Shown one piece after another: positions 1-44,594 of a stretch of DNA of 64,000 nucleotides. The DNA comes from a phage. The notes beneath the pieces were generated by a model. That model was given only the letters and a program-made list of their open reading frames with translations, did not search any database and had not been told where the DNA came from. A program made the translations under genes and the position numbers. Where the stretch lies: sequence record PQ536907.1. The stretch is one strand, 5' to 3'. Numbering within the stretch: position 1 is the stretch's first letter; each line of letters opens with the position of its first letter.

Positions 1-1546
1 CGAAGATATTTGGTTTAAGTGATGTCGATACGAAGTTCTTGAAATAGAACATTTTGTTTTCAATGTTATGACGCAAAGTTTTAAAGGTAACTTCTTGTCC
101 ACGGTAAAGTGTAGTTCCTGGAGGAAGAACTGATCCTTTGGCAAAGGCAGAATCTAACGTCTCGATGTGATTAATAGCTCTTTCCATGTATTCTTCACGG
201 GTAGAATCTGGTTTACCCAAAAGGAACGAGTTCATTTCAACATATGAATCTGCACAATAATCTTCAATTACATCAGATTCAGCCTGAGTCAGTCCTTTTG
301 GAGTTACTTCGGTGCTTGCGTATTCATATGCCTGAGCAGCAGATTCATTAATCAATTTATAAATGCCATTCATTACAAATTGAATAATAGCTGTCTTTTC
401 ATCTGATGTAGCTTTAGAATCTTTAACTAAATCATTGATAATTTTCTTAATAACATCAAAGCTATTAGAAATATTAATGTCAGCAAGATCGCTTAAAATT
501 TTATCAGTTTTATAATCAAAGAATTCTTTATTCTTTAAATATTCTTGAGAACCTTGATATGTTATATCGCTCTGCAGCTTGATAGATGGATCGCGTAAAC
601 GTGCATGGGTCAATGCAATATGATTTCGGAAACTTTCTAGTTCATAATCATTAGATTTAAAACGAGAAGCACTTCTCATACCACCGATAGCTCCTTTGCT
701 GAAGTTTGAACCAATCTGGATAACGCCAGAGTTCATTGGTCCTTCTGCTTTATATACCGGAACTTTAGATTCAAACTCTTGATATTTCTTGGCAGCGAAG
801 CTATCACCCTGAAGTGAAGCATCAACAGTAGAATATTGAGCTTGTGCTGCTAATCGACGACTAATTTTAGTTTTCTGAATAACAGCTTGATCAGTGCGCT
901 TATCATTTTCTAAAGCAATAGAAGCAGCAACAGCGACAGCTTTAGGAACAGCATTACCTGTTTTAACGTCTACATAAACATCACCAACCTTTGATTCAAC
1001 TTTTGTGAATAACTCAGTTGAAATAGGAGGTACACCTGGAATGTCTTCTAAATTGGCATTTTTACGGTAAACCATAATATATGCATATTTTTTATCATAG
1101 TCCCAGATTTCCTTTAAAAGAACATATCGACCTGCTCCCTTAGTACGTACTAAACGGTCAGCAATAACTTGCATTTGACGAGCTGCGCCATTTGTTTTAC
1201 TTTTTAGTACGCGGAATAGGCATGCGTCGATTTTATACTGTTTCATTGTTTGAAGAGCAGTATCAAAAACAGCATTAATGACGCCAATTGGATTTCCACC
1301 CAAGTTTCTAAGCTTAACCAGCGATAATTTCTCGTTGACACCTATCATTACGATATGCATCATTTTATCGCCCGGCTTAACGTTTTTATTTGTATCACCA
1401 CCGGAGGTGTATGTACAAAATCTAAATCCAGGAAGCACGCTTTCTTCGCCGACTTGAATAGCAAAAATTTGTGGTATTTTATGCTTAGGATTTAAGTTAA
1501 CAACCGGCGCCGAAGCGCCGTCAAATAATTCTGTAATAAGTTCCAT
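1..1546 (-). CDS. Alt-like ADP-ribosyltransferase paralog, N-terminal ~515 codons (3' end lies beyond window start)
   Basis: Minus-strand ORF starting ATG at 1546, 3 nt after the alt stop; translation MELITELFDGASAPVVNLNPKHKIPQIF... shares blocks with Alt (CTYTSGGDTN, GDKMMHIV, YKIDAC, GRYVLLKE.WDYDKKYAY, LEDIPGVP.ISTELFTKVESKVGDVY, LYRGQ, MFYFKNFVSTSL). Confidence 0.8.
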   Translation of the reverse strand, partial: MELITELFDGASAPVVNLNPKHKIPQIFAIQVGEESVLPGFRFCTYTSGGDTNKNVKPGDKMMHIVMIGVNEKLSLVKLRNLGGNPIGVINAVFDTALQTMKQYKIDACLFRVLKSKTNGAARQMQVIADRLVRTKGAGRYVLLKEIWDYDKKYAYIMVYRKNANLEDIPGVPPISTELFTKVESKVGDVYVDVKTGNAVPKAVAVAASIALENDKRTDQAVIQKTKISRRLAAQAQYSTVDASLQGDSFAAKKYQEFESKVPVYKAEGPMNSGVIQIGSNFSKGAIGGMRSASRFKSNDYELESFRNHIALTHARLRDPSIKLQSDITYQGSQEYLKNKEFFDYKTDKILSDLADINISNSFDVIKKIINDLVKDSKATSDEKTAIIQFVMNGIYKLINESAAQAYEYASTEVTPKGLTQAESDVIEDYCADSYVEMNSFLLGKPDSTREEYMERAINHIETLDSAFAKGSVLPPGTTLYRGQEVTFKTLRHNIENKMFYFKNFVSTSLKPNIF

Positions 1547-3884: not shown

Positions 3885-5344
3885 AGACCAGTTACCTCAT
3901 GAAAATCACCAAATACATCTTCGAATGTATTAGCTTTAGTTTTATCTTCACGTAAACGAATCGCAATCGGAAGAAATAATTTAACGTAATCAGTGCGGCC
4001 ATCAGATTTTAACCAACCGTTGCATTCGCACTCTAGAATTTTTCCAATATAATAATTTTGGTTTTCCATAATGCGAGTACGGTCAAGCTCATGTGATTTT
4101 ACGCCGGCTTTATCTTTTAAGCCTGAACCAGCATTTACTTTAATTTTTCCACACTCTGATTCAAGAATAAATCCACCTGCTTTAGTAGGGTCTTTACGGT
4201 GAGGATAAATTCCTACAATTTTTAAATCAACATCAATTACTTCTTTAAATTTATAGAGATTTTTTGAACGAGCATTTTCCCATAATCCATCGATATTTTT
4301 GAGAATAATACCTTCAAGACCTTGGTCAATATACTTTTTATAAATTACCTTAGCTTCATCTAGGTTATTTACTACTTGGTTTTCAATTAAAATTACTTTA
4401 TCATAGCCTGATGTCATTTGTTCTAGTTTAGAAAAACGTACATCATATTTTAAACGAAATGCTGGAAGACCGTATATTTCTACCAACGGAACATAATCCC
4501 AGACCTGAAACTTCATGCATTGAGCTTCTTTTTCTGAAATAGTTCCCTTTAAAGATTTATTAGCGATTCCATTAGAAGTAGTACGTGATTCAGCTACTTC
4601 AGCAAACTCTTTAGCTTTACTAATTTCAGGATAAGCATCAAAAAGAAAATCTAGGCCTTCTGGCTCCTTTTTAACTTGCTCATGGTATACCAATTCGCCA
4701 TCAATTAACACACCTTCTGGATGAATCTGGCGGGCTTCAGCGGTCATTTTGATTAACTCTTCCTTAAGAAGATCTAATCCTAGATATTCATTACCAGCTC
4801 GTGATAAAAGACGGACATCATCTAATTCATCACCTCTAACTTCAGCAAAACACCGAGCTCCATCTGCTTTTAATTGTGCAAAGGCTGGAAATTTGATATT
4901 CTTACTAATGCCTTTTTCATCATAAGAACTTGCGAGCATTTGAGGTTGTTCAGGAATTAAACCTGGCCAAACTTTGTTTGCAATAGATACTGAAGCACCA
5001 CATTCAAGGTCTCGCATCATCACTCGACGCAAAACTTCAACATCATCTTTTTTACCATCGGTGATATATCCAGATAATTCCTCAATTGCCGCATTTCCGG
5101 TCAATTTCCGAGTAGCTAACGTGAATTCAATGAAGTCAAGCATATCGGTAAGAGTCAACATTCCAAAACTCTGGGTAGCAATACCCGGTTTAGGCCATTT
5201 CTTGATATAATACTGTAACCCACGAGAATAAGTCAGACGATATACTCGTTTAAGCAATTCATTATCTTTATTCTTTTCAAGAATTGCTTGCTTCTGCTTA
5301 GTTGAACCAATAGATGCTATTTCGTTCAGAATTTTAAGAATCAT
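3881..5344 (-). CDS. 30: ATP-dependent DNA ligase
   Basis: 487 aa, MILKILNEIASIGSTKQKQAILEKNKDNELLKRVYRL... matches recalled T4 DNA ligase; adenylation lysine motif KADGAR. Confidence 0.95.
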   Translation of the reverse strand: MILKILNEIASIGSTKQKQAILEKNKDNELLKRVYRLTYSRGLQYYIKKWPKPGIATQSFGMLTLTDMLDFIEFTLATRKLTGNAAIEELSGYITDGKKDDVEVLRRVMMRDLECGASVSIANKVWPGLIPEQPQMLASSYDEKGISKNIKFPAFAQLKADGARCFAEVRGDELDDVRLLSRAGNEYLGLDLLKEELIKMTAEARQIHPEGVLIDGELVYHEQVKKEPEGLDFLFDAYPEISKAKEFAEVAESRTTSNGIANKSLKGTISEKEAQCMKFQVWDYVPLVEIYGLPAFRLKYDVRFSKLEQMTSGYDKVILIENQVVNNLDEAKVIYKKYIDQGLEGIILKNIDGLWENARSKNLYKFKEVIDVDLKIVGIYPHRKDPTKAGGFILESECGKIKVNAGSGLKDKAGVKSHELDRTRIMENQNYYIGKILECECNGWLKSDGRTDYVKLFLPIAIRLREDKTKANTFEDVFGDFHEVTGL

Positions 5345-41735: not shown

Positions 41736-41876
41736 TTACCATACTAGTGAATGTAGTGCCATAATAACATCAGAAATGAAAAGCACGACTTGAATTAATC
41801 CGAACATTACTCCATAATATAGTGCTACCAATAAAGTAGCAAGGGCTAATGAATAGCCCAAGATTTTCTTAATCAT
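41736..41876 (-). CDS. small hydrophobic ORF (46 aa), below ORF-track cut-off
   Basis: Manual translation MIKKILGYSLALATLLVALYYGVMFGLIQVV... Confidence 0.3.
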   Translation of the reverse strand: MIKKILGYSLALATLLVALYYGVMFGLIQVVLFISDVIMALHSLVW

Positions 41877-42027
41877 TAGTAGATAACAACACAAATGTTA
41901 AATATGCACACATACCCTGGGCTAAAGCTTGTGAAAACACACTGCTAGCATCGATACAGATAGTTAAAACACATGCTACTATCCAACAAATAAATGAAAT
42001 AACTCCTAATAATTTTGCGATATTCAT
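41869..42027 (-). CDS. Ac-like small membrane protein paralog (52 aa)
   Basis: MNIAKLLGVISFICWIVACVLTICIDASSVFSQALAQGMCAYL... is clearly paralogous to the downstream 51-aa ORF. Confidence 0.45.
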   Translation of the reverse strand: MNIAKLLGVISFICWIVACVLTICIDASSVFSQALAQGMCAYLTFVLLSTND

Positions 42028-42037
42028 AATATTCTCC

Positions 42038-42193
42038 TCAACTATTTTTAGAACCAATGTACGCGAATAATGATAAAATCGCTAATACGCCCTGAGCTGA
42101 TGCTTGCAAAAATACTGAAGTTTCTCCGGTTATTACTGTTCCGATGCATAAAAAGAACCAACAGAAAAAGGCTATACCGTGAACAAATTTCAT
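42038..42193 (-). CDS. ac: probable Ac (acridine sensitivity) small membrane protein, 51 aa
   Basis: Manual translation MKFVHGIAFFCWFFLCIGTVITGETSVFLQASAQGVLAILSLFAYIGSKNS; 51 aa, immediately upstream (in coordinate) of stp as in T4. Confidence 0.5.
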   Translation of the reverse strand: MKFVHGIAFFCWFFLCIGTVITGETSVFLQASAQGVLAILSLFAYIGSKNS

Positions 42194-42200
42194 ATTTTCC

Positions 42201-42281
42201 TCACTGGCGTCCGAAGACGCCTTTGGTTTTAAGATTGTTACGATAGAACTGCATCACATGTTCGTTATGGAAATTACTCAT
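42201..42281 (-). CDS. stp: Stp peptide (26 aa), activator of host PrrC anticodon nuclease
   Basis: Manual translation gives [26 protein letters not shown], matching recalled T4 Stp; not in ORF track. Confidence 0.75.
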
Positions 42282-42739
42282 TAATATGCCTGCAAAACAA
42301 ATTTAAAGTTATCAGCCAACATACGGTTCATTTCTTCAAGTGTTTGATACTCAGAATGATGATTACGAGTAAACGCTAAAGCTAACTGTCCTTTTCCAAA
42401 TCCCGTCGTCAAAGGTTTCATCTTAGAAGCAGGCAGATAAAATACTGTGTATGGAACATTGTTATTTGCAATAGTACGTGCAAGTTGAGACCGGCGTTGA
42501 CGAATATGACTTAGAACTGCACTGAATCCTTGCTTAGAACGCTGATTACCTACATAAAATCGTGCAGACACACATGGATTACTAAATGGACGACCATCTA
42601 ATTTACACACTAAAAAGTAAAATCCAGGTTTAGATAAAATATCTTTATGCGGAGTTCCCAAAAACCACTCACCACCCTTGATTGTACCAATAACAGTAGC
42701 GCCTGCATTGTTCAGATCAGTAACAGTCATGTATTTCAT
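42281..42739 (-). CDS. ndd: Ndd nucleoid-disruption protein
   Basis: About 152 aa from internal Met [18 protein letters not shown]... Confidence 0.85.
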
Positions 42740-42799
42740 AATAATTTCCTCTAAATTATTTTCTACTCCAAGGCCGCATGAATACACACGGCCATTAAA

Positions 42800-43015
42800 T
42801 TAATCGTCGCAGTCGACGCTCAATTCCCAAAACTCTTCTACGGTATAAGTTTCAGTATCATTTTCAATACAGAAACGTTCATTACTGTTATTTGCTAAAG
42901 TAGCGTTAACTGTCGGTTTCTCGCTAGTGCTCTTAAGAGGTGAAATACGAATTAACTGATCACCGTTATCTAAACAGAAAATTTCACCAACTTTTACATC
43001 TTTAAAAATTTTCAT
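42800..43015 (-). CDS. hypothetical protein (71 aa)
   Basis: ORF in ndd.x block. Confidence 0.45.
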   Translation of the reverse strand: MKIFKDVKVGEIFCLDNGDQLIRISPLKSTSEKPTVNATLANNSNERFCIENDTETYTVEEFWELSVDCDD

Positions 43016-43130
43016 AATTCACCTCAAGGAGTATAAAATCCGAATGCAGTTGTTGACCATCCCATCCAATATGGAAAATTTGCACCAATGTAAAACATAA
43101 GAATATAAAACCAACCGCTCAGCAAATTCA

Positions 43131-43349
43131 TCATTTTACACCATTCCAAATTGTTTCAACCACAGATTTTAAACCATTTTGATGAATATCAATTCCGACT
43201 ACTGTCATCAAATAGATTCCAACTACAACTGAACCTAAGGCAAAAATCAGCATGAAAATGAATAAAGCCGGAAAAATATTATCGAAAAACCATTCAATAA
43301 ATGTAAAAGCACTGCGTTTACGCTTCATATTTTCCTCACATAAATCCAA
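43131..43349 (-). CDS. hypothetical membrane protein (72 aa)
   Basis: Hydrophobic segment FPALFIFMLIFALGSVVVGIYLMTVVGI. Confidence 0.45.
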   Translation of the reverse strand: MDLCEENMKRKRSAFTFIEWFFDNIFPALFIFMLIFALGSVVVGIYLMTVVGIDIHQNGLKSVVETIWNGVK

Positions 43350-43449
43350 AGTAAACGTTTAATACATCAATCATTAAAACGATTGGGAATATACACAAAA
43401 CTGTTAGTATTATAACTACATTCCATATAGCTTTAACAATCTTTTTCAT
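43336..43449 (-). CDS. small hydrophobic ORF (37 aa; ORF-track version extends upstream through a promoter)
   Basis: Internal ATG with SD; early-type promoter (GTTTACA 43501-43507, TACTAT 43478-43483) lies inside the longer track ORF. Confidence 0.3.
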   Translation of the reverse strand: MKKIVKAIWNVVIILTVLCIFPIVLMIDVLNVYFGFM

Positions 43450-43692
43450 TTTCTGTTCCTCCGTAGTTGATAGTTGTATAGTACCACAGAGGAACAGTCT
43501 TGTAAACAACTTTTTTAAAAATATTCGTAATAAATGTGAATACCAATCACTACTGCCGAAACTTGTGCAACCAACCATGCACACGCAATAAGTACAGAAT
43601 TCAAAATTTTCATAATAACCTCATCACAAAAGTAAATGTTAAACAAATTACTGGAATACTAATTAACCAAACAAAACACCACCATAATGAAC

Positions 43693-43956
43693 TCATAGTT
43701 CAATCTCAACGATTTCCAGGTGTTTTTGTTTTATTGCCTTTTTAACACAATCATGGACTAAATATGACCATGAATCATTATATTCTCCATTAACTAATCG
43801 TTGGAGATCTTCACGTGATGATAAGTAAGGTTGATCTGATTCCCATTTTGATAAAAATACTGCAGTAAAAATATCTCCTTCACCTGTAGTTGAAGTCGTA
43901 AATGCAATAAATTCACCGGTAATTTTATGTTTAGCGTAATAAAATTTAAATTTCAT
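43693..43956 (-). CDS. hypothetical protein (87 aa from MKFKFYYAKHK...)
   Basis: SD GGAGGAG upstream of internal ATG; promoter at 43984-44013. Confidence 0.45.
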   Translation of the reverse strand: MKFKFYYAKHKITGEFIAFTTSTTGEGDIFTAVFLSKWESDQPYLSSREDLQRLVNGEYNDSWSYLVHDCVKKAIKQKHLEIVEIEL

Positions 43957-43983
43957 TTTTACTCCTCCGTAGCTGATAGTTGT

Positions 43984-44038
43984 ATAGTACCACGGTCCTT
44001 GTGGTATGTAAACCATTTTGTGAAATTTTTTTTTTTTT
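43984..44038 (-). promoter_or_regulatory. Early promoter (-35 GTTTACA, -10 TACTAT) with upstream A13 tract
   Basis: GTTTACA 44007-44013; 17-nt spacer; TACTAT 43984-43989; 13-nt homopolymer 44026-44038 directly after the denB stop. Confidence 0.5.
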
Positions 44039-44594
44039 AAATGGAAAGATACCATCCGTTGTAGTTGCTTTTTCTTACAACCTTACGAAGGTCTTCTCTG
44101 TCACCGATGAACTTCGGAGTGTACTGGATGACACCTGGATGAATTTCTTTAGTGTTGAATATAATTATACAGTCAGCGACTTGATGATTTAGAATGGGCC
44201 CTAGATTTATTCCAGAACCGTATGGATACTCTCCGCTGCATCCTGTTGTTACAGAAATCCAACGTGAGTCAGTTTGGTGTGTCTTAACTTCTACACGAAG
44301 CCCGCAGTATCTTGGATGCGCCAATACATCCCATGCGTATGTATACGGGTCATTAACATCCTCTTGGCCTTTATTAACATACCCGCTTAACCAATCTGCT
44401 ACAAAAAATTCTGCGTACACAGCGATACGGCATCTTTCGATAACTTCTGCTTTATCCTGGTTCGGGTTTTGTTTTAAAGAGTATCTTGCTGTATCAGCAA
44501 TTTTGACCTTCATTTCACTAGTCAAGTCACTGTTCGATAGGGTAAATGTCGGAATCTGAAATAGTCTCTGTAAACCCGGATTCGTTTTCTGCAT
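44037..44594 (-). CDS. denB: endonuclease IV
   Basis: 185 aa; position adjacent to rIIB; matches recalled T4 EndoIV. Confidence 0.85.
   Translation of the reverse strand: MQKTNPGLQRLFQIPTFTLSNSDLTSEMKVKIADTARYSLKQNPNQDKAEVIERCRIAVYAEFFVADWLSGYVNKGQEDVNDPYTYAWDVLAHPRYCGLRVEVKTHQTDSRWISVTTGCSGEYPYGSGINLGPILNHQVADCIIIFNTKEIHPGVIQYTPKFIGDREDLRKVVRKSNYNGWYLSI

Follow-up and report, generated by a model that had tools for sequence, protein, structure and literature searches.

The locus considered here is best read against what is already recorded for phage T4. Transcripts of T4 ndd.2–ndd.6 are classed as early, and the time-course proteome that detected the ndd.1 protein early detected no product of ndd.2–ndd.6 (PMC9697503 Table S2). 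We regard this non-detection as weak counter-evidence to translation, since tiny hydrophobic peptides are poor targets for mass spectrometry. Knock-downs of ndd.2–ndd.6 in T4 are scored 'Not Fit', with no fitness cost (PMC11879866 supplement), all of them are 'Non-essential' by transposon sequencing (bioRxiv 10.1101/2025.11.20.689424), and a genome-reduced T4 does without ndd.3–ndd.6. Two neighbouring T4 proteins, Ac and gp52.1, resemble these peptides in being encoded in the same early non-essential region and in being short (46–52 aa), hydrophobic and predicted to be membrane proteins, but in sequence neither is significantly similar to any of the five (best p ~0.02 over 21 comparisons).

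With respect to regulation, T4 genes e, soc, 49 and I-TevI carry hairpins that sequester the ribosome binding site and contain an internal promoter; this promoter is late or middle, and the arrangement provides temporal control. A further system is that of the PeSL cassettes of T4-like phages, mobile units that combine an early promoter with a stem-loop (Arbiol 2010, PMC2839356; PMC4122927), for which the PST/T4 early-promoter consensus is TTTACW-N17-TAYWAT and for which Comeau et al. 2014 use the ndd.4/.5 region as an example (PMC4122927).

The window that we analysed is a stretch of 64,000 nucleotides of phage DNA (sequence record PQ536907.1). The initial annotation had pointed to a cluster of small hydrophobic ORFs between ndd and denB. 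Indeed, five back-to-back minus-strand ORFs of 36, 65, 37, 32 and 28 aa lie at 43024–43696, with the flanks as it gave them (Table 1); of its size range of 28–72 aa, the upper value proved to be a TTG-extended reading of the 65-aa ORF. The interval additionally holds orf87 and ndd.1, which is acidic, soluble and non-hydrophobic. Each of the five ORFs has a PHROG profile match (E = 1.7e-24 for ndd.2, 3.5e-29 for the 65-aa ORF, 1.2e-20 for ndd.4, 4.4e-25 for ndd.5 and 1.6e-17 for ndd.6), and all lie between ndd/ndd.1 and denB in the expected order on the early-transcribed strand, as compared with the annotation tables of T4, T4T, T2, T6, RB3, RB14 and others. The position from ndd/ndd.1 to denB, the strand and the order are the same in T4 (NC_000866 T4p270–T4p275), whose proteins are 92–100% identical. 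Judged by these profiles and by gene order, the cluster is the Tequatrovirus orthologue of T4 ndd.2, ndd.2a/ndd.3 (one 65-aa gene), ndd.4, ndd.5 and ndd.6. The five ORFs are therefore not a discovery, having been in the T4 annotation for decades and being covered by PHROG (all) and by Pfam (one). The Pfam search gave DUF7248 as its sole match, and none of the seven ORFs had an NCBIfam or PADLOC profile match at E ≤ 0.1.

Table 1. Features of the ndd–denB interval and its surroundings (positions in the window)
Feature	Position	Strand	Details
ndd	42281..42739		flank of the interval
Two GC-rich hairpins between ndd.1 and ndd	42805–42818, 42772–42793 (span 42772..42818)	minus	second is the X75802 stem_loop
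ndd.1	42800..43015	minus	71 aa; phrog_2183; next same-strand gene downstream of the cluster
ndd.2	43024..43134	minus	36 aa, MMNLLSGWFY...; phrog_4135
ndd.2a/3 (65-aa gene)	43131..43328	minus	PF23906, phrog_2401
ndd.4	43336..43449	minus	37 aa; phrog_3098
ndd.4 hairpin (predicted)	43453..43497	minus	15 bp; promoter spacer forms the 5' arm and the ndd.4 SD region the 3' arm, -10 hexamer in the loop
Internal early promoter	43471..43507	minus	GTTTACA, 17 nt, TACTAT; second X75802 promoter, 6 mismatches
ndd.5	43515..43613	minus	32 aa; phrog_5011
ndd.6	43610..43696	minus	28 aa; phrog_8851
orf87	43693..43956	minus	87-aa soluble ORF; phrog_2390; RB69ORF270c homologue
Upstream early (sigma-70) promoter	43977..44013	minus	GTTTACA, 17 nt, TACTAT; 0 mismatches to the X75802 annotation
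denB	44037..44594		flank of the interval

The 65-aa ORF matches DUF7248 (PF23906) over profile positions 4–57 of 58 (E = 6.5e-19; 68 bits against a cut-off of 27), and the GLKSV..W.G motif at its C-terminus is invariant in a cross-genus alignment of four divergent members of the family. The family is very small: an exhaustive HMMER search for remote homologues of the 65-aa ORF returned 7 matches among 1.8 billion cluster representatives, three of which, in proteins of 820–6,939 aa, are probably spurious. It is at this gene that the RefSeq genome of T4 differs from the window, having ndd.3 (26 aa) and ndd.2a (40 aa) where the window has one ORF. The split comes from a one-base gap confined to X75802 (the 1994 entry) and its derivatives AF158101 and NC_000866; the gene is intact in resequenced T4 and in 18 of the 20 compared loci. 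We checked the gap with a 71-nt DNA query spanning the site in place of tblastn, because the T4 frame stays open and tblastn is blind to the frameshift. A literature search on the name 'ndd.2a' gave no match. In RefSeq T4, ndd.3 is a phantom gene and ndd.2a a truncated one, and recent genome-wide T4 screens have targeted both separately. T4 departs from the window in two further respects: its ndd.4 is annotated from an upstream ATG (42 aa), whereas the conserved start gives 37 aa, and it keeps only 8 codons of the 87-aa gene that the window has upstream of ndd.6.

How far these genes extend was judged on 20 loci of annotated GenBank phages, chosen because a scan of IMG/VR with Ndd gave only 5 loci. 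Across the sampled Tequatrovirus genomes the five ORFs show 89–100% DNA identity and are intact in nearly all of the 20 loci, and the 65-aa ORF is present in 495 phage records. Natural disruptions do occur now and then: T2 has a stop codon in the 65-aa ORF, L003 has 2 nt inserted in ndd.6, and in P0003 ndd.4 is fused in frame to the 65-aa ORF. All differences in gene content among the sampled Tequatrovirus loci sit directly downstream of the upstream promoter, in a slot that holds one of two orf87 alleles (~68% identical), an RB32ORF266c insertion or a deletion; orf87 is absent from T4, T2 and RB3, its last 8 codons being kept. Between genera the gene content of the interval differs. The description of the interval as hypervariable is hence apt for the slot next to denB and for comparisons between genera, but not for the five ORFs, which are nearly invariant within Tequatrovirus.

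Homologues of ndd.6, ndd.4, ndd.2 and DUF7248 are found in the same interval of other Tevenvirinae genera, often unannotated. For ndd.6 (MSSLWWCFVWLISIPVICLTFTFVMRLL), syntenic homologues in Mosigvirus, Dhakavirus and Kanagawavirus leave W6, W10, I14, P15 and I17 invariant. The ndd.4 homologues in Dhakavirus and Kanagawavirus have 58% identity, and in PEi20 a 41-aa ORF adjoining ndd.4 shares a ..PYW.G motif with ndd.2. Counted from its second ATG, ndd.2 is 35 aa long; several phages have ATA in place of the first one. We also considered relationships among the peptides themselves. A resemblance of the C-terminus of the 65-aa protein (LKSVVETIWNGV) to the N-terminus of ndd.4 (MKKIVKAIWNVV) is unsupported, and paralogy among the five peptides and with Ac, assessed by Smith-Waterman comparison against 1,000 shuffles, gave best p values of ~0.02–0.04 in the 21 comparisons, none of them significant once corrected; a clear relationship is seen only between the two Ac copies.

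The hydrophobic character of the products is more than a chance property of the region. It holds five same-strand ATG ORFs of at least 28 aa, four of which are strongly hydrophobic; 300 dinucleotide-preserving shuffles averaged 0.21, with a maximum of 2, and four were seen in 0 of 300. The best 19-residue Kyte-Doolittle means are 2.71 for the 65-aa ORF, 2.96 for ndd.4, 2.43 for ndd.5 and 2.33 for ndd.6, each of which has a single hydrophobic stretch spanning some 19 residues or more. The value for ndd.2, which has no charged residues, is aromatic-rich and is weakly hydrophobic, reaches 1.17, and its assignment as a single-pass (bitopic) membrane peptide is for this reason doubtful. The claim that nearly all are single-pass membrane peptides is accordingly upheld, as a prediction, for four ORFs and put in question for the fifth.

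The 65-aa ORF begins with a basic stretch (MKRKRS) followed by a hydrophobic segment of ~29 residues, and its AF2 single-sequence model is one helix over residues 5–64 (pLDDT 90). A basic N-terminus (MKKIVK) and one predicted hydrophobic helix are likewise found in ndd.4. By the positive-inside argument the basic N-termini of both proteins would lie on the cytoplasmic side; the 65-aa protein would then present its conserved GLKSV..W.G tail to the periplasm. Altogether, we infer that the products are helical peptides of 28–65 residues with one hydrophobic segment each, most likely inserted in the inner membrane. Some databases label them 'outer membrane' or 'periplasmic'; these labels go back to old predictions, one of which used the truncated 40-aa ndd.2a. 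A lipobox-like LIAC at residues 8–11 of ndd.5 is conserved in Tequatrovirus. However, we do not class ndd.5 as a lipoprotein, because no more than 10 residues precede the lipobox and because, in RB69, the ORF at the ndd.5 position lacks one.

It had also been stated that each ORF has its own SD. A clear one precedes the 65-aa gene (GAGGA, before the ATG at 43328), ndd.4 (GGAGGA) and ndd.5 (GAGG), while those of ndd.6 and ndd.2 are weak, and the starts of these two overlap the upstream stop codon (ATGA). Such ATGA overlaps join the orf87 stop to the ndd.6 start and the ndd.6 stop to the ndd.5 start, and the start of ndd.2 either overlaps the 65-aa gene's stop or lies directly next to it. It seems reasonable to propose that translation would begin either from a gene's own SD (65-aa gene, ndd.4, ndd.5) or by coupling at the overlaps (orf87 to ndd.6, ndd.6 to ndd.5, 65-aa gene to ndd.2). 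All phages without orf87 retain an 8-codon mini-ORF, MKI[AV]EIEL, that overlaps the ndd.6 start, and this retention fits translational coupling to ndd.6.

As to transcription, of the promoters described as interspersed among the ORFs, one is inside the cluster and the other lies just outside it. Both T4 promoters have been annotated since 1994 (X75802). The upstream promoter drives orf87, ndd.6 and ndd.5, and the internal one drives ndd.4, ndd.2a/3, ndd.2, ndd.1 and possibly ndd; both would yield polycistronic mRNAs within the first minutes of infection. The early-promoter consensus is matched at 43507..43478 and 44013..43984, and its form GTTTACW-N17-TAYWAT occurs 13 times in the window, always on the minus strand, against an expectation of 0.02. 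We did not retain a third promoter-like site at 43307..43278, inside the 65-aa ORF: it has 10 of 12 matches, is not annotated in T4 and comes from a promoter scan that also picked up the upstream promoter but whose 11 sites compare with 9.9 expected by chance. Downstream, between ndd.1 and ndd, the two hairpins may form an attenuator or mark an RNA end.

The two promoter copies share a 38-nt repeat of 89% identity that includes the 5' leader and the SD. The arrangement resembles PeSL cassettes in that both promoters fit the published early-promoter consensus and the slot after the upstream copy, with its insertions, deletions and replacements between close relatives, is where the genomes differ. 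As for the stem-loops, the internal copy has the 15-bp ndd.4 hairpin (minimum free energy -23.2 kcal/mol, z = -4.4) and the upstream copy a weak 7-bp one (z = -2.3). Their placement is not that of the published layout, which has an upstream terminator: the internal stem-loop surrounds the -10 box, and its pairing partner is the SD that lies downstream. Also in contrast to PeSL cassettes, the five hydrophobic ORFs are not shuffled within Tequatrovirus.

The ndd.4 hairpin also resembles those of e, soc, 49 and I-TevI, in that here too the SD pairs with sequence upstream of the internal promoter's start site, so that the structure would form on read-through transcripts only. It may hide the ribosome binding site of ndd.4 on transcripts that read through from the upstream promoter and leave it free on those from the internal promoter. 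The difference is that both promoters are early here, and that compensatory covariation is lacking. Across 13 phages, 99% of cells are paired and four pairs vary by C/U opposite G, but no pair changed on both sides; the structure is thus not demonstrated, and its conservation could reflect constraints on the promoter and the SD alone.

Given the failure of proteomics to find any peptide, one has to ask whether the ORFs are translated at all. The sequence could be kept for its promoters, for mRNA structure or as recombination cassettes, two promoter cassettes being in or beside the region, and the hydrophobicity could follow from a T-rich coding strand (40% T). We disagree with this reading for several reasons. 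Substitutions are concentrated at third codon positions (2/2/11 polymorphic sites by codon position in ndd.5), and pooled pN/pS is 0.11 in frame but 2.5 and 1.3 in the other two frames. By gene, the in-frame values are 0.14 for ndd.2, 0.08 for the 65-aa ORF, 0.13 for ndd.5 and 0.14 for ndd.6, next to 0.10 for ndd.1. Within Tequatrovirus ndd.4 gives 0.85 from only 9 polymorphic sites, and its coding constraint is seen only in the cross-genus comparison with Dhakavirus, where dN/dS is 0.21–0.24 and the off frames exceed 1; for ndd.6 against Dhakavirus dN/dS is 0.4–0.8, barely better than one off frame. The lengths of the ORFs are kept, the sole in-frame change being a 3-nt deletion, and protein homologues persist at 41–58% amino-acid identity where the DNA is ~72% identical or undetectable. 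Thus the outcome that the initial annotation had named beforehand as its refutation, dN/dS near 1, was not observed. Together with the absence of the ORF pattern from all 300 shuffles, the frame-specific constraint and the Dhakavirus values already contradict an untranslated region, to which we give hardly any credence. By these substitution patterns, the five ORFs are genuine genes under purifying selection.

Given the T4 screens, ndd.2–ndd.6 are accessory genes, dispensable on laboratory E. coli and kept by purifying selection, and their role is most likely an early adjustment of host envelope physiology. Being laboratory-dispensable yet under purifying selection would also suit inner-membrane factors for counter-defence or exclusion, acting against membrane-bound abortive-infection or exclusion systems of particular hosts or prophages or against superinfecting phages; genes with such a role would bring no benefit on K-12 or B laboratory strains but would be selected in nature. 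They do lie in a non-essential early region beside rIIB, stp and ac, with host-interaction and membrane functions, and gene content that varies between genera is typical of host-adaptation loci. However, arms-race genes often diversify, and these peptides hardly vary within Tequatrovirus. HIDEN-SEQ, which covered RexAB, RnlAB, CBASS, DarTG1, DarTG2 and minimal medium, reported only expected or named genes and no ndd.x. No PADLOC defence-system model is matched either, although PADLOC does not test anti-defence proteins. In our opinion a counter-defence function is unlikely. The peptides may instead be host-shut-off membrane toxins of the type I toxin or pinholin-like kind, which would perturb proton-motive force or permeability early; their size (28–65 aa), the single predicted hydrophobic helix and the early expression would suit this, and a T4 review notes that many small immediate-early genes kill the host when cloned. 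On the contrary, Pfam, NCBIfam and PADLOC revealed no relationship to a known toxin family, and uncontrolled depolarisation would be costly for a phage such as T4 that needs an energised membrane through most of infection, which makes toxins of this kind very unlikely to us.

The reading that we prefer, namely that the cluster consists of the orthologues of T4 ndd.2–ndd.6, coding for early accessory membrane peptides whose translation starts from an SD or by coupling, is in our opinion probable as a whole. Within an adjustment of envelope physiology, one old phenotype deserves mention. That infection stimulates phosphatidylglycerol synthesis has been known since 1968–69, and this phospholipid stimulation is lost in the saΔ9 deletion, which takes out 52.1 through denB (PMC6071114); the review maps the effect only to this 3.4-kb deletion. 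That at least one of the peptides underlies the stimulation lost in saΔ9 is a tentative suggestion and rather unlikely. The bolder version, in which one or several of the micro-proteins, perhaps in concert or with 52.1 and Ac, are the determinant that redirects host phospholipid synthesis toward phosphatidylglycerol, we consider quite unlikely. Against both, saΔ9 also removes 52.1, ac, stp, ndd and denB, and the review reports that stimulation of phosphatidylglycerol synthesis was likewise missing in a mutant without dCTPase, endonuclease IV (denB) and Alc, a result that speaks against the small ORFs.

If a lipid role were true, the ndd peptides would be small phage proteins that regulate a lipid enzyme of the host inner membrane, and for the old phosphatidylglycerol phenotype the cluster represents a short candidate list. 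The comparative evidence indicates that even ORFs of 28–37 aa are real genes; the annotations of RB69, Dhakavirus and Kanagawavirus genomes lack several of them, most notably ndd.6. The cluster also represents a compact natural set for the study of phage micro-proteins at the bacterial inner membrane.

The cluster of very small hydrophobic ORFs that the initial annotation described between ndd and denB is not new: it is a gene set already annotated in T4 and catalogued in protein families. In a megablast search the 1.4-kb stretch hit 506 phage records, in 490 cases with at least 80% of its length covered. By name almost all are enterobacterial T4-like phages; all those fetched are Tequatrovirus, and the closest is vB_Eco_TB37 (99.7%). 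By base-by-base alignment the window and T4 are collinear across the interval, where RefSeq T4 lists ndd.1, ndd.2, ndd.2a, ndd.3, ndd.4, ndd.5 and ndd.6. Each of the seven ORFs in the ndd-denB interval matches a PHROG family, and the 65-aa ORF matches nearly the whole Pfam profile DUF7248; NCBIfam and PADLOC profile searches of the ORFs gave no matches. The interpretation offered initially is supported as a whole, for genes that had been annotated before.

The genes in this part of the window all lie on the minus strand. There are indeed five small ORFs, four of them strongly hydrophobic (Kyte-Doolittle mean 2.3–3.0 over a 19-residue window); the best such mean in ndd.2 is only 1.17, and this peptide has no charged residues. 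The three peptides quoted at the outset are ndd.2, ndd.4 and ndd.5, and the upper end of the size range then given, 28-72 aa, is the 65-aa ORF in a TTG-extended reading. After 300 shuffles of 43018–43700 that preserved dinucleotide composition, the mean count of hydrophobic ATG ORFs 28 aa or longer was 0.21 and the maximum two, against four observed, which confirms the cluster and rules out a by-product of a T-rich strand.

Features of the ndd-denB interval, with corresponding features of other phages (pairwise pN/pS in the annotated frame)
Feature	Position	Strand	pN/pS	Remark
denB	44037..44594	-		flank
upstream early promoter	44013..43977	-		first element in transcription order after denB
87-aa ORF	43693..43956	-		soluble
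mini-ORF region	43693–43719			T4 (L001) about 4494–4520; T2 (L011) about 1294–1320
ndd.6	43610..43696	-	0.14	28 aa
ndd.5	43515..43613	-	0.13	32 aa
internal (second) early promoter	43507..43471	-		between ndd.5 and ndd.4
ndd.4	43336..43449	-		37 aa
65-aa ORF	43131..43328	-	0.08	
ndd.2	43024..43134	-	0.14	36 aa
ndd.1	42800..43015	-	0.10	71 aa, acidic, soluble
two GC-rich hairpins				between ndd.1 and ndd
ndd	42281..42739	-		flank
T4 ndd.3	L001 (NC_000866) 4049–4129			26 aa
T4 ndd.2a	L001 (NC_000866) 3933–4055			40 aa
ndd.6 homologue, Mosigvirus RB69	L026 1501–1587			unannotated
ndd.6 homologue, Dhakavirus LHE83	L013 1771–1848			unannotated
ndd.6 homologue, Dhakavirus IME08	L012 1759–1848			unannotated
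ndd.6 homologue, Kanagawavirus PEi20	L027 about 1384–1467			unannotated

Beyond ndd lies a tandem pair of Ac-like (acridine resistance) paralogues, at 42038–42193 (-) and 41869–42027 (-). One equals T4 Ac at 51 of 52 residues; the other, which T4 lacks, sits between ac and stp and shows about 35% identity. At the opposite flank, 13 consecutive T residues (A when read on the coding strand; 44026–44038) extend from within the denB stop codon toward the upstream promoter, in a run whose length and composition vary by phage (6 A in T4, 9 in TB37).

That the ORFs are non-coding is, in our opinion, excluded for practical purposes. We compared the window with 20 loci (T4, TB37, T2, T6, RB3, RB14, five IMG/VR contigs and others), in which the small ORFs are almost always intact. 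The exceptions are a stop codon in the 65-aa ORF of T2 (L011 732–929), a 2-nt insertion at the ndd.6 end in one contig (L003 2369–2457), an in-frame 3-nt deletion in FL33, an ndd.1 split by a 44-bp insertion in fFiEco06 (L008 401–660) and a one-base frameshift of the 65-aa ORF in the T4 reference. Polymorphic sites concentrate in third codon positions (5/2/23 in the 65-aa ORF), and pooled pN/pS computed likewise for the two off frames is 2.5 and 1.3. For ndd.4 the value within Tequatrovirus, 0.85, is uninformative because it comes from just nine polymorphic sites; against its Dhakavirus homologue (58% amino-acid and about 72% DNA identity) dN/dS is 0.21–0.24 in the annotated frame and exceeds 1 in the off frames. 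Neutral ratios near 1, which the initial annotation had named as speaking against coding, are thus not what we find, and these are real coding genes.

The frameshift in the T4 reference deserves separate mention. At the site of the 65-aa ORF, RefSeq T4 has ndd.3 and ndd.2a, overlapping by 7 nt, and in the alignment one G of codon 2 is absent from it (window ATGAAGCGT, T4 ATGAA-CGT). A 71-nt query over the gap site matches at 100% only X75802 (the 1994 T4D entry), AF158101 and NC_000866. The remaining records among the matches listed have 72 nt, including KJ477684 (T4 'wild', independently sequenced), KJ477685 (T4 GT7), HM137666 (T4T) and two recent T4 assemblies; we verified the G and an intact 65-aa ORF in T4 wild and T4T. 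From the restriction of the gap to three records and the G in resequenced T4 we conclude that the 26-aa ndd.3 is a phantom and that ndd.2a, labelled 'periplasmic', represents the C-terminal portion of a single 65-aa gene. The source is a one-base error or a stock-specific mutation, passed on from the 1994 entry. In the T4T annotation 'ndd.3' is already 198 nt long, the 26-aa ndd.3 is a singleton in PHROGs, and the lifted-over ndd.3 in the annotation used for HIDEN-SEQ (T4 transposon sequencing) is 82 nt, which is no multiple of three. Recent genome-wide T4 screens still count ndd.3 and ndd.2a as separate genes.

The description of the interval as hypervariable is apt for the locus when genera are compared, and for one slot, but it does not fit the five hydrophobic ORFs within Tequatrovirus, where their DNA identity is 89–100%; the 65-aa ORF occurs in 495 phage records, with protein identity above 90% in nearly all. 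The variable part there is the slot directly after the upstream promoter. It holds either of two alleles of the 87-aa gene (about 68% DNA identity, with flanks over 95% identical, loci L003–L020), lacks that gene, or carries an inserted RB32ORF266c with or without it. The 87-aa gene belongs to phrog_2390 and to the RB69ORF270c family. Comeau et al. (PMC4122927, Fig. 6A) illustrated cassette exchange mediated by PeSL, the promoter plus stem-loop cassette, with this region. We also note a public 62-aa protein (P0003) in which ndd.4 residues 1-31 are fused in frame to the last 31 of the 65-aa protein, which implies that in some phage a deletion has brought the two genes together.

Gene content shifts further between genera. 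The Dhakavirus interval has ndd.1, ndd.4, ndd.6 and the 87-aa gene in one or two copies (a tandem duplicate of 88 and 85 aa in LHE83), without ndd.2, the 65-aa ORF and ndd.5. RB69 retains no more than the 87-aa gene, ndd.6, ndd.1 and a hydrophobic ORF of 36 aa. This 36-aa ORF, unannotated and ATGA-coupled, stands at the ndd.5 position (L026 1584–1694). Homologues of ndd.4 occupy the same interval in Dhakavirus and Kanagawavirus, and PEi20 has an ndd.2-like ORF sharing the motif PYW.G as well as a DUF7248 member; the C-terminal motif of that family, GLKSV..W.G, is unchanged in four divergent members. The ndd.6 homologue of RB69 starts with ATG in an ATGA overlap with RB69ORF270c, while in Dhakavirus and PEi20 a TTG start overlaps the stop of the upstream gene. 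M1, S3, W6, W10, I14, P15 and I17 are invariant among these homologues.

X75802 carries annotations of both early promoters; the window matches the upstream one exactly and departs from the internal one at 6 of 37 positions. A 38-nt repeat (89% identity) common to both copies runs through the 5' leader into the SD. The pattern GTTTACW-N17-TAYWAT, which is the PST/T4 PeSL consensus TTTACW-N17-TAYWAT of Comeau et al. (PMC4122927) with a leading G, has 13 matches in the 64-kb window (11456 to 61118) against 0.02 expected; all 13 are on the minus strand, so the window is part of the early, counter-clockwise transcribed region. Inside the 65-aa ORF there is also a promoter-like site at 43278–43307 (-) (TTTACA, 18 nt, GATAAT; 10 of 12 matches), without T4 annotation and from a scan whose overall count is at chance level.

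The claim that each ORF has its own SD is correct for ndd.4 (GGAGGA), the 65-aa ORF (GAGGA) and ndd.5 (GAGG), as it is for ndd.1 (GAGGTG), but ndd.6 and ndd.2 have weak SDs and starts overlapping the preceding stop (ATGA). Phages without the 87-aa gene (T4, T2, RB3) all keep its final eight codons as a mini-ORF, MKI[AV]EIEL, which overlaps the ndd.6 start (ATGA). In T4 two ATGAAA repeats flank the deletion. We infer that selection for translational coupling into ndd.6 keeps the mini-ORF.

At the internal promoter a predicted 15-bp hairpin (-23.2 kcal/mol, z = -4.4) has the promoter spacer as one arm and the ndd.4 SD in the other. Transcripts from the internal promoter would lack its 5' arm, while read-through transcripts from the upstream promoter would carry it and hide the SD. 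This logic resembles the hairpins known to sequester the ribosome-binding sites of T4 genes e, soc, 49 and I-TevI. Among 13 distinct sequences pairing holds in 99% of cells, and at four pairs the only variation is C/U opposite G; since no pair changes on both sides, the data are consistent with the putative structure but do not prove it.

As for function, the T4 transcripts of ndd.2, ndd.2a, ndd.3, ndd.4, ndd.5 and ndd.6 are of the early class and their proteins were not detected, while Ndd.1 is detected early (Wolfram-Schauerte et al., PMC9697503 Table S2). CRISPRi-ART scores every ndd.x knock-down 'Not Fit', that is, fitness is unaffected (PMC11879866 supplement), and transposon sequencing in T4 finds all ndd.x genes non-essential. 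The genome-reduced clone T4_583L (MZ375356.1, L025; 151.8 kb) is missing ndd.3–ndd.6 as well as some of the 65-aa gene, which is consistent with their dispensability. In databases the labels 'outer membrane protein' and 'periplasmic protein' go back to old predictions, one based on the truncated ndd.2a, and they probably do not apply to single hydrophobic helices. In a single-sequence AF2 model the 65-aa protein forms one unbroken helix (residues 5–64, pLDDT 90), and given the N-terminal MKRKRS its conserved C-terminal tail most likely lies in the periplasm.

The sole phenotype linked to the region is that of saΔ9, a deletion of 52.1, ac, stp, ndd, ndd.1–6 and denB, in which the stimulation of phospholipid synthesis after infection, especially of phosphatidylglycerol, is lost (Kutter et al., PMC6071114). 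The same review gives the ndd.1–ndd.6 products as unknown, and reports that phosphatidylglycerol is also unstimulated in a dCTPase/endonuclease IV/Alc mutant, so the lipid gene may lie outside the small ORFs. To connect the ORFs with this stimulation is a guess, and we doubt it. A counter-defence or exclusion role seems to us about equally likely; transposon sequencing reported no ndd.x hits under RexAB, RnlAB, CBASS, DarTG1, DarTG2 or minimal medium. We give a toxin-like role a lower probability.

Several by-products are worth keeping: the correction of the T4 reference, the ndd.6 homologues left unannotated in other genera, the retained mini-ORF with its putative coupling role and the hypothesis of an SD-sequestering hairpin. 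In the reading we adopt, the cluster itself is an immediate-early polycistronic set of helical micro-proteins, partly translationally coupled, which most likely insert into the inner membrane of the host and modify the physiology of its envelope, and which are dispensable on laboratory strains yet kept by selection.
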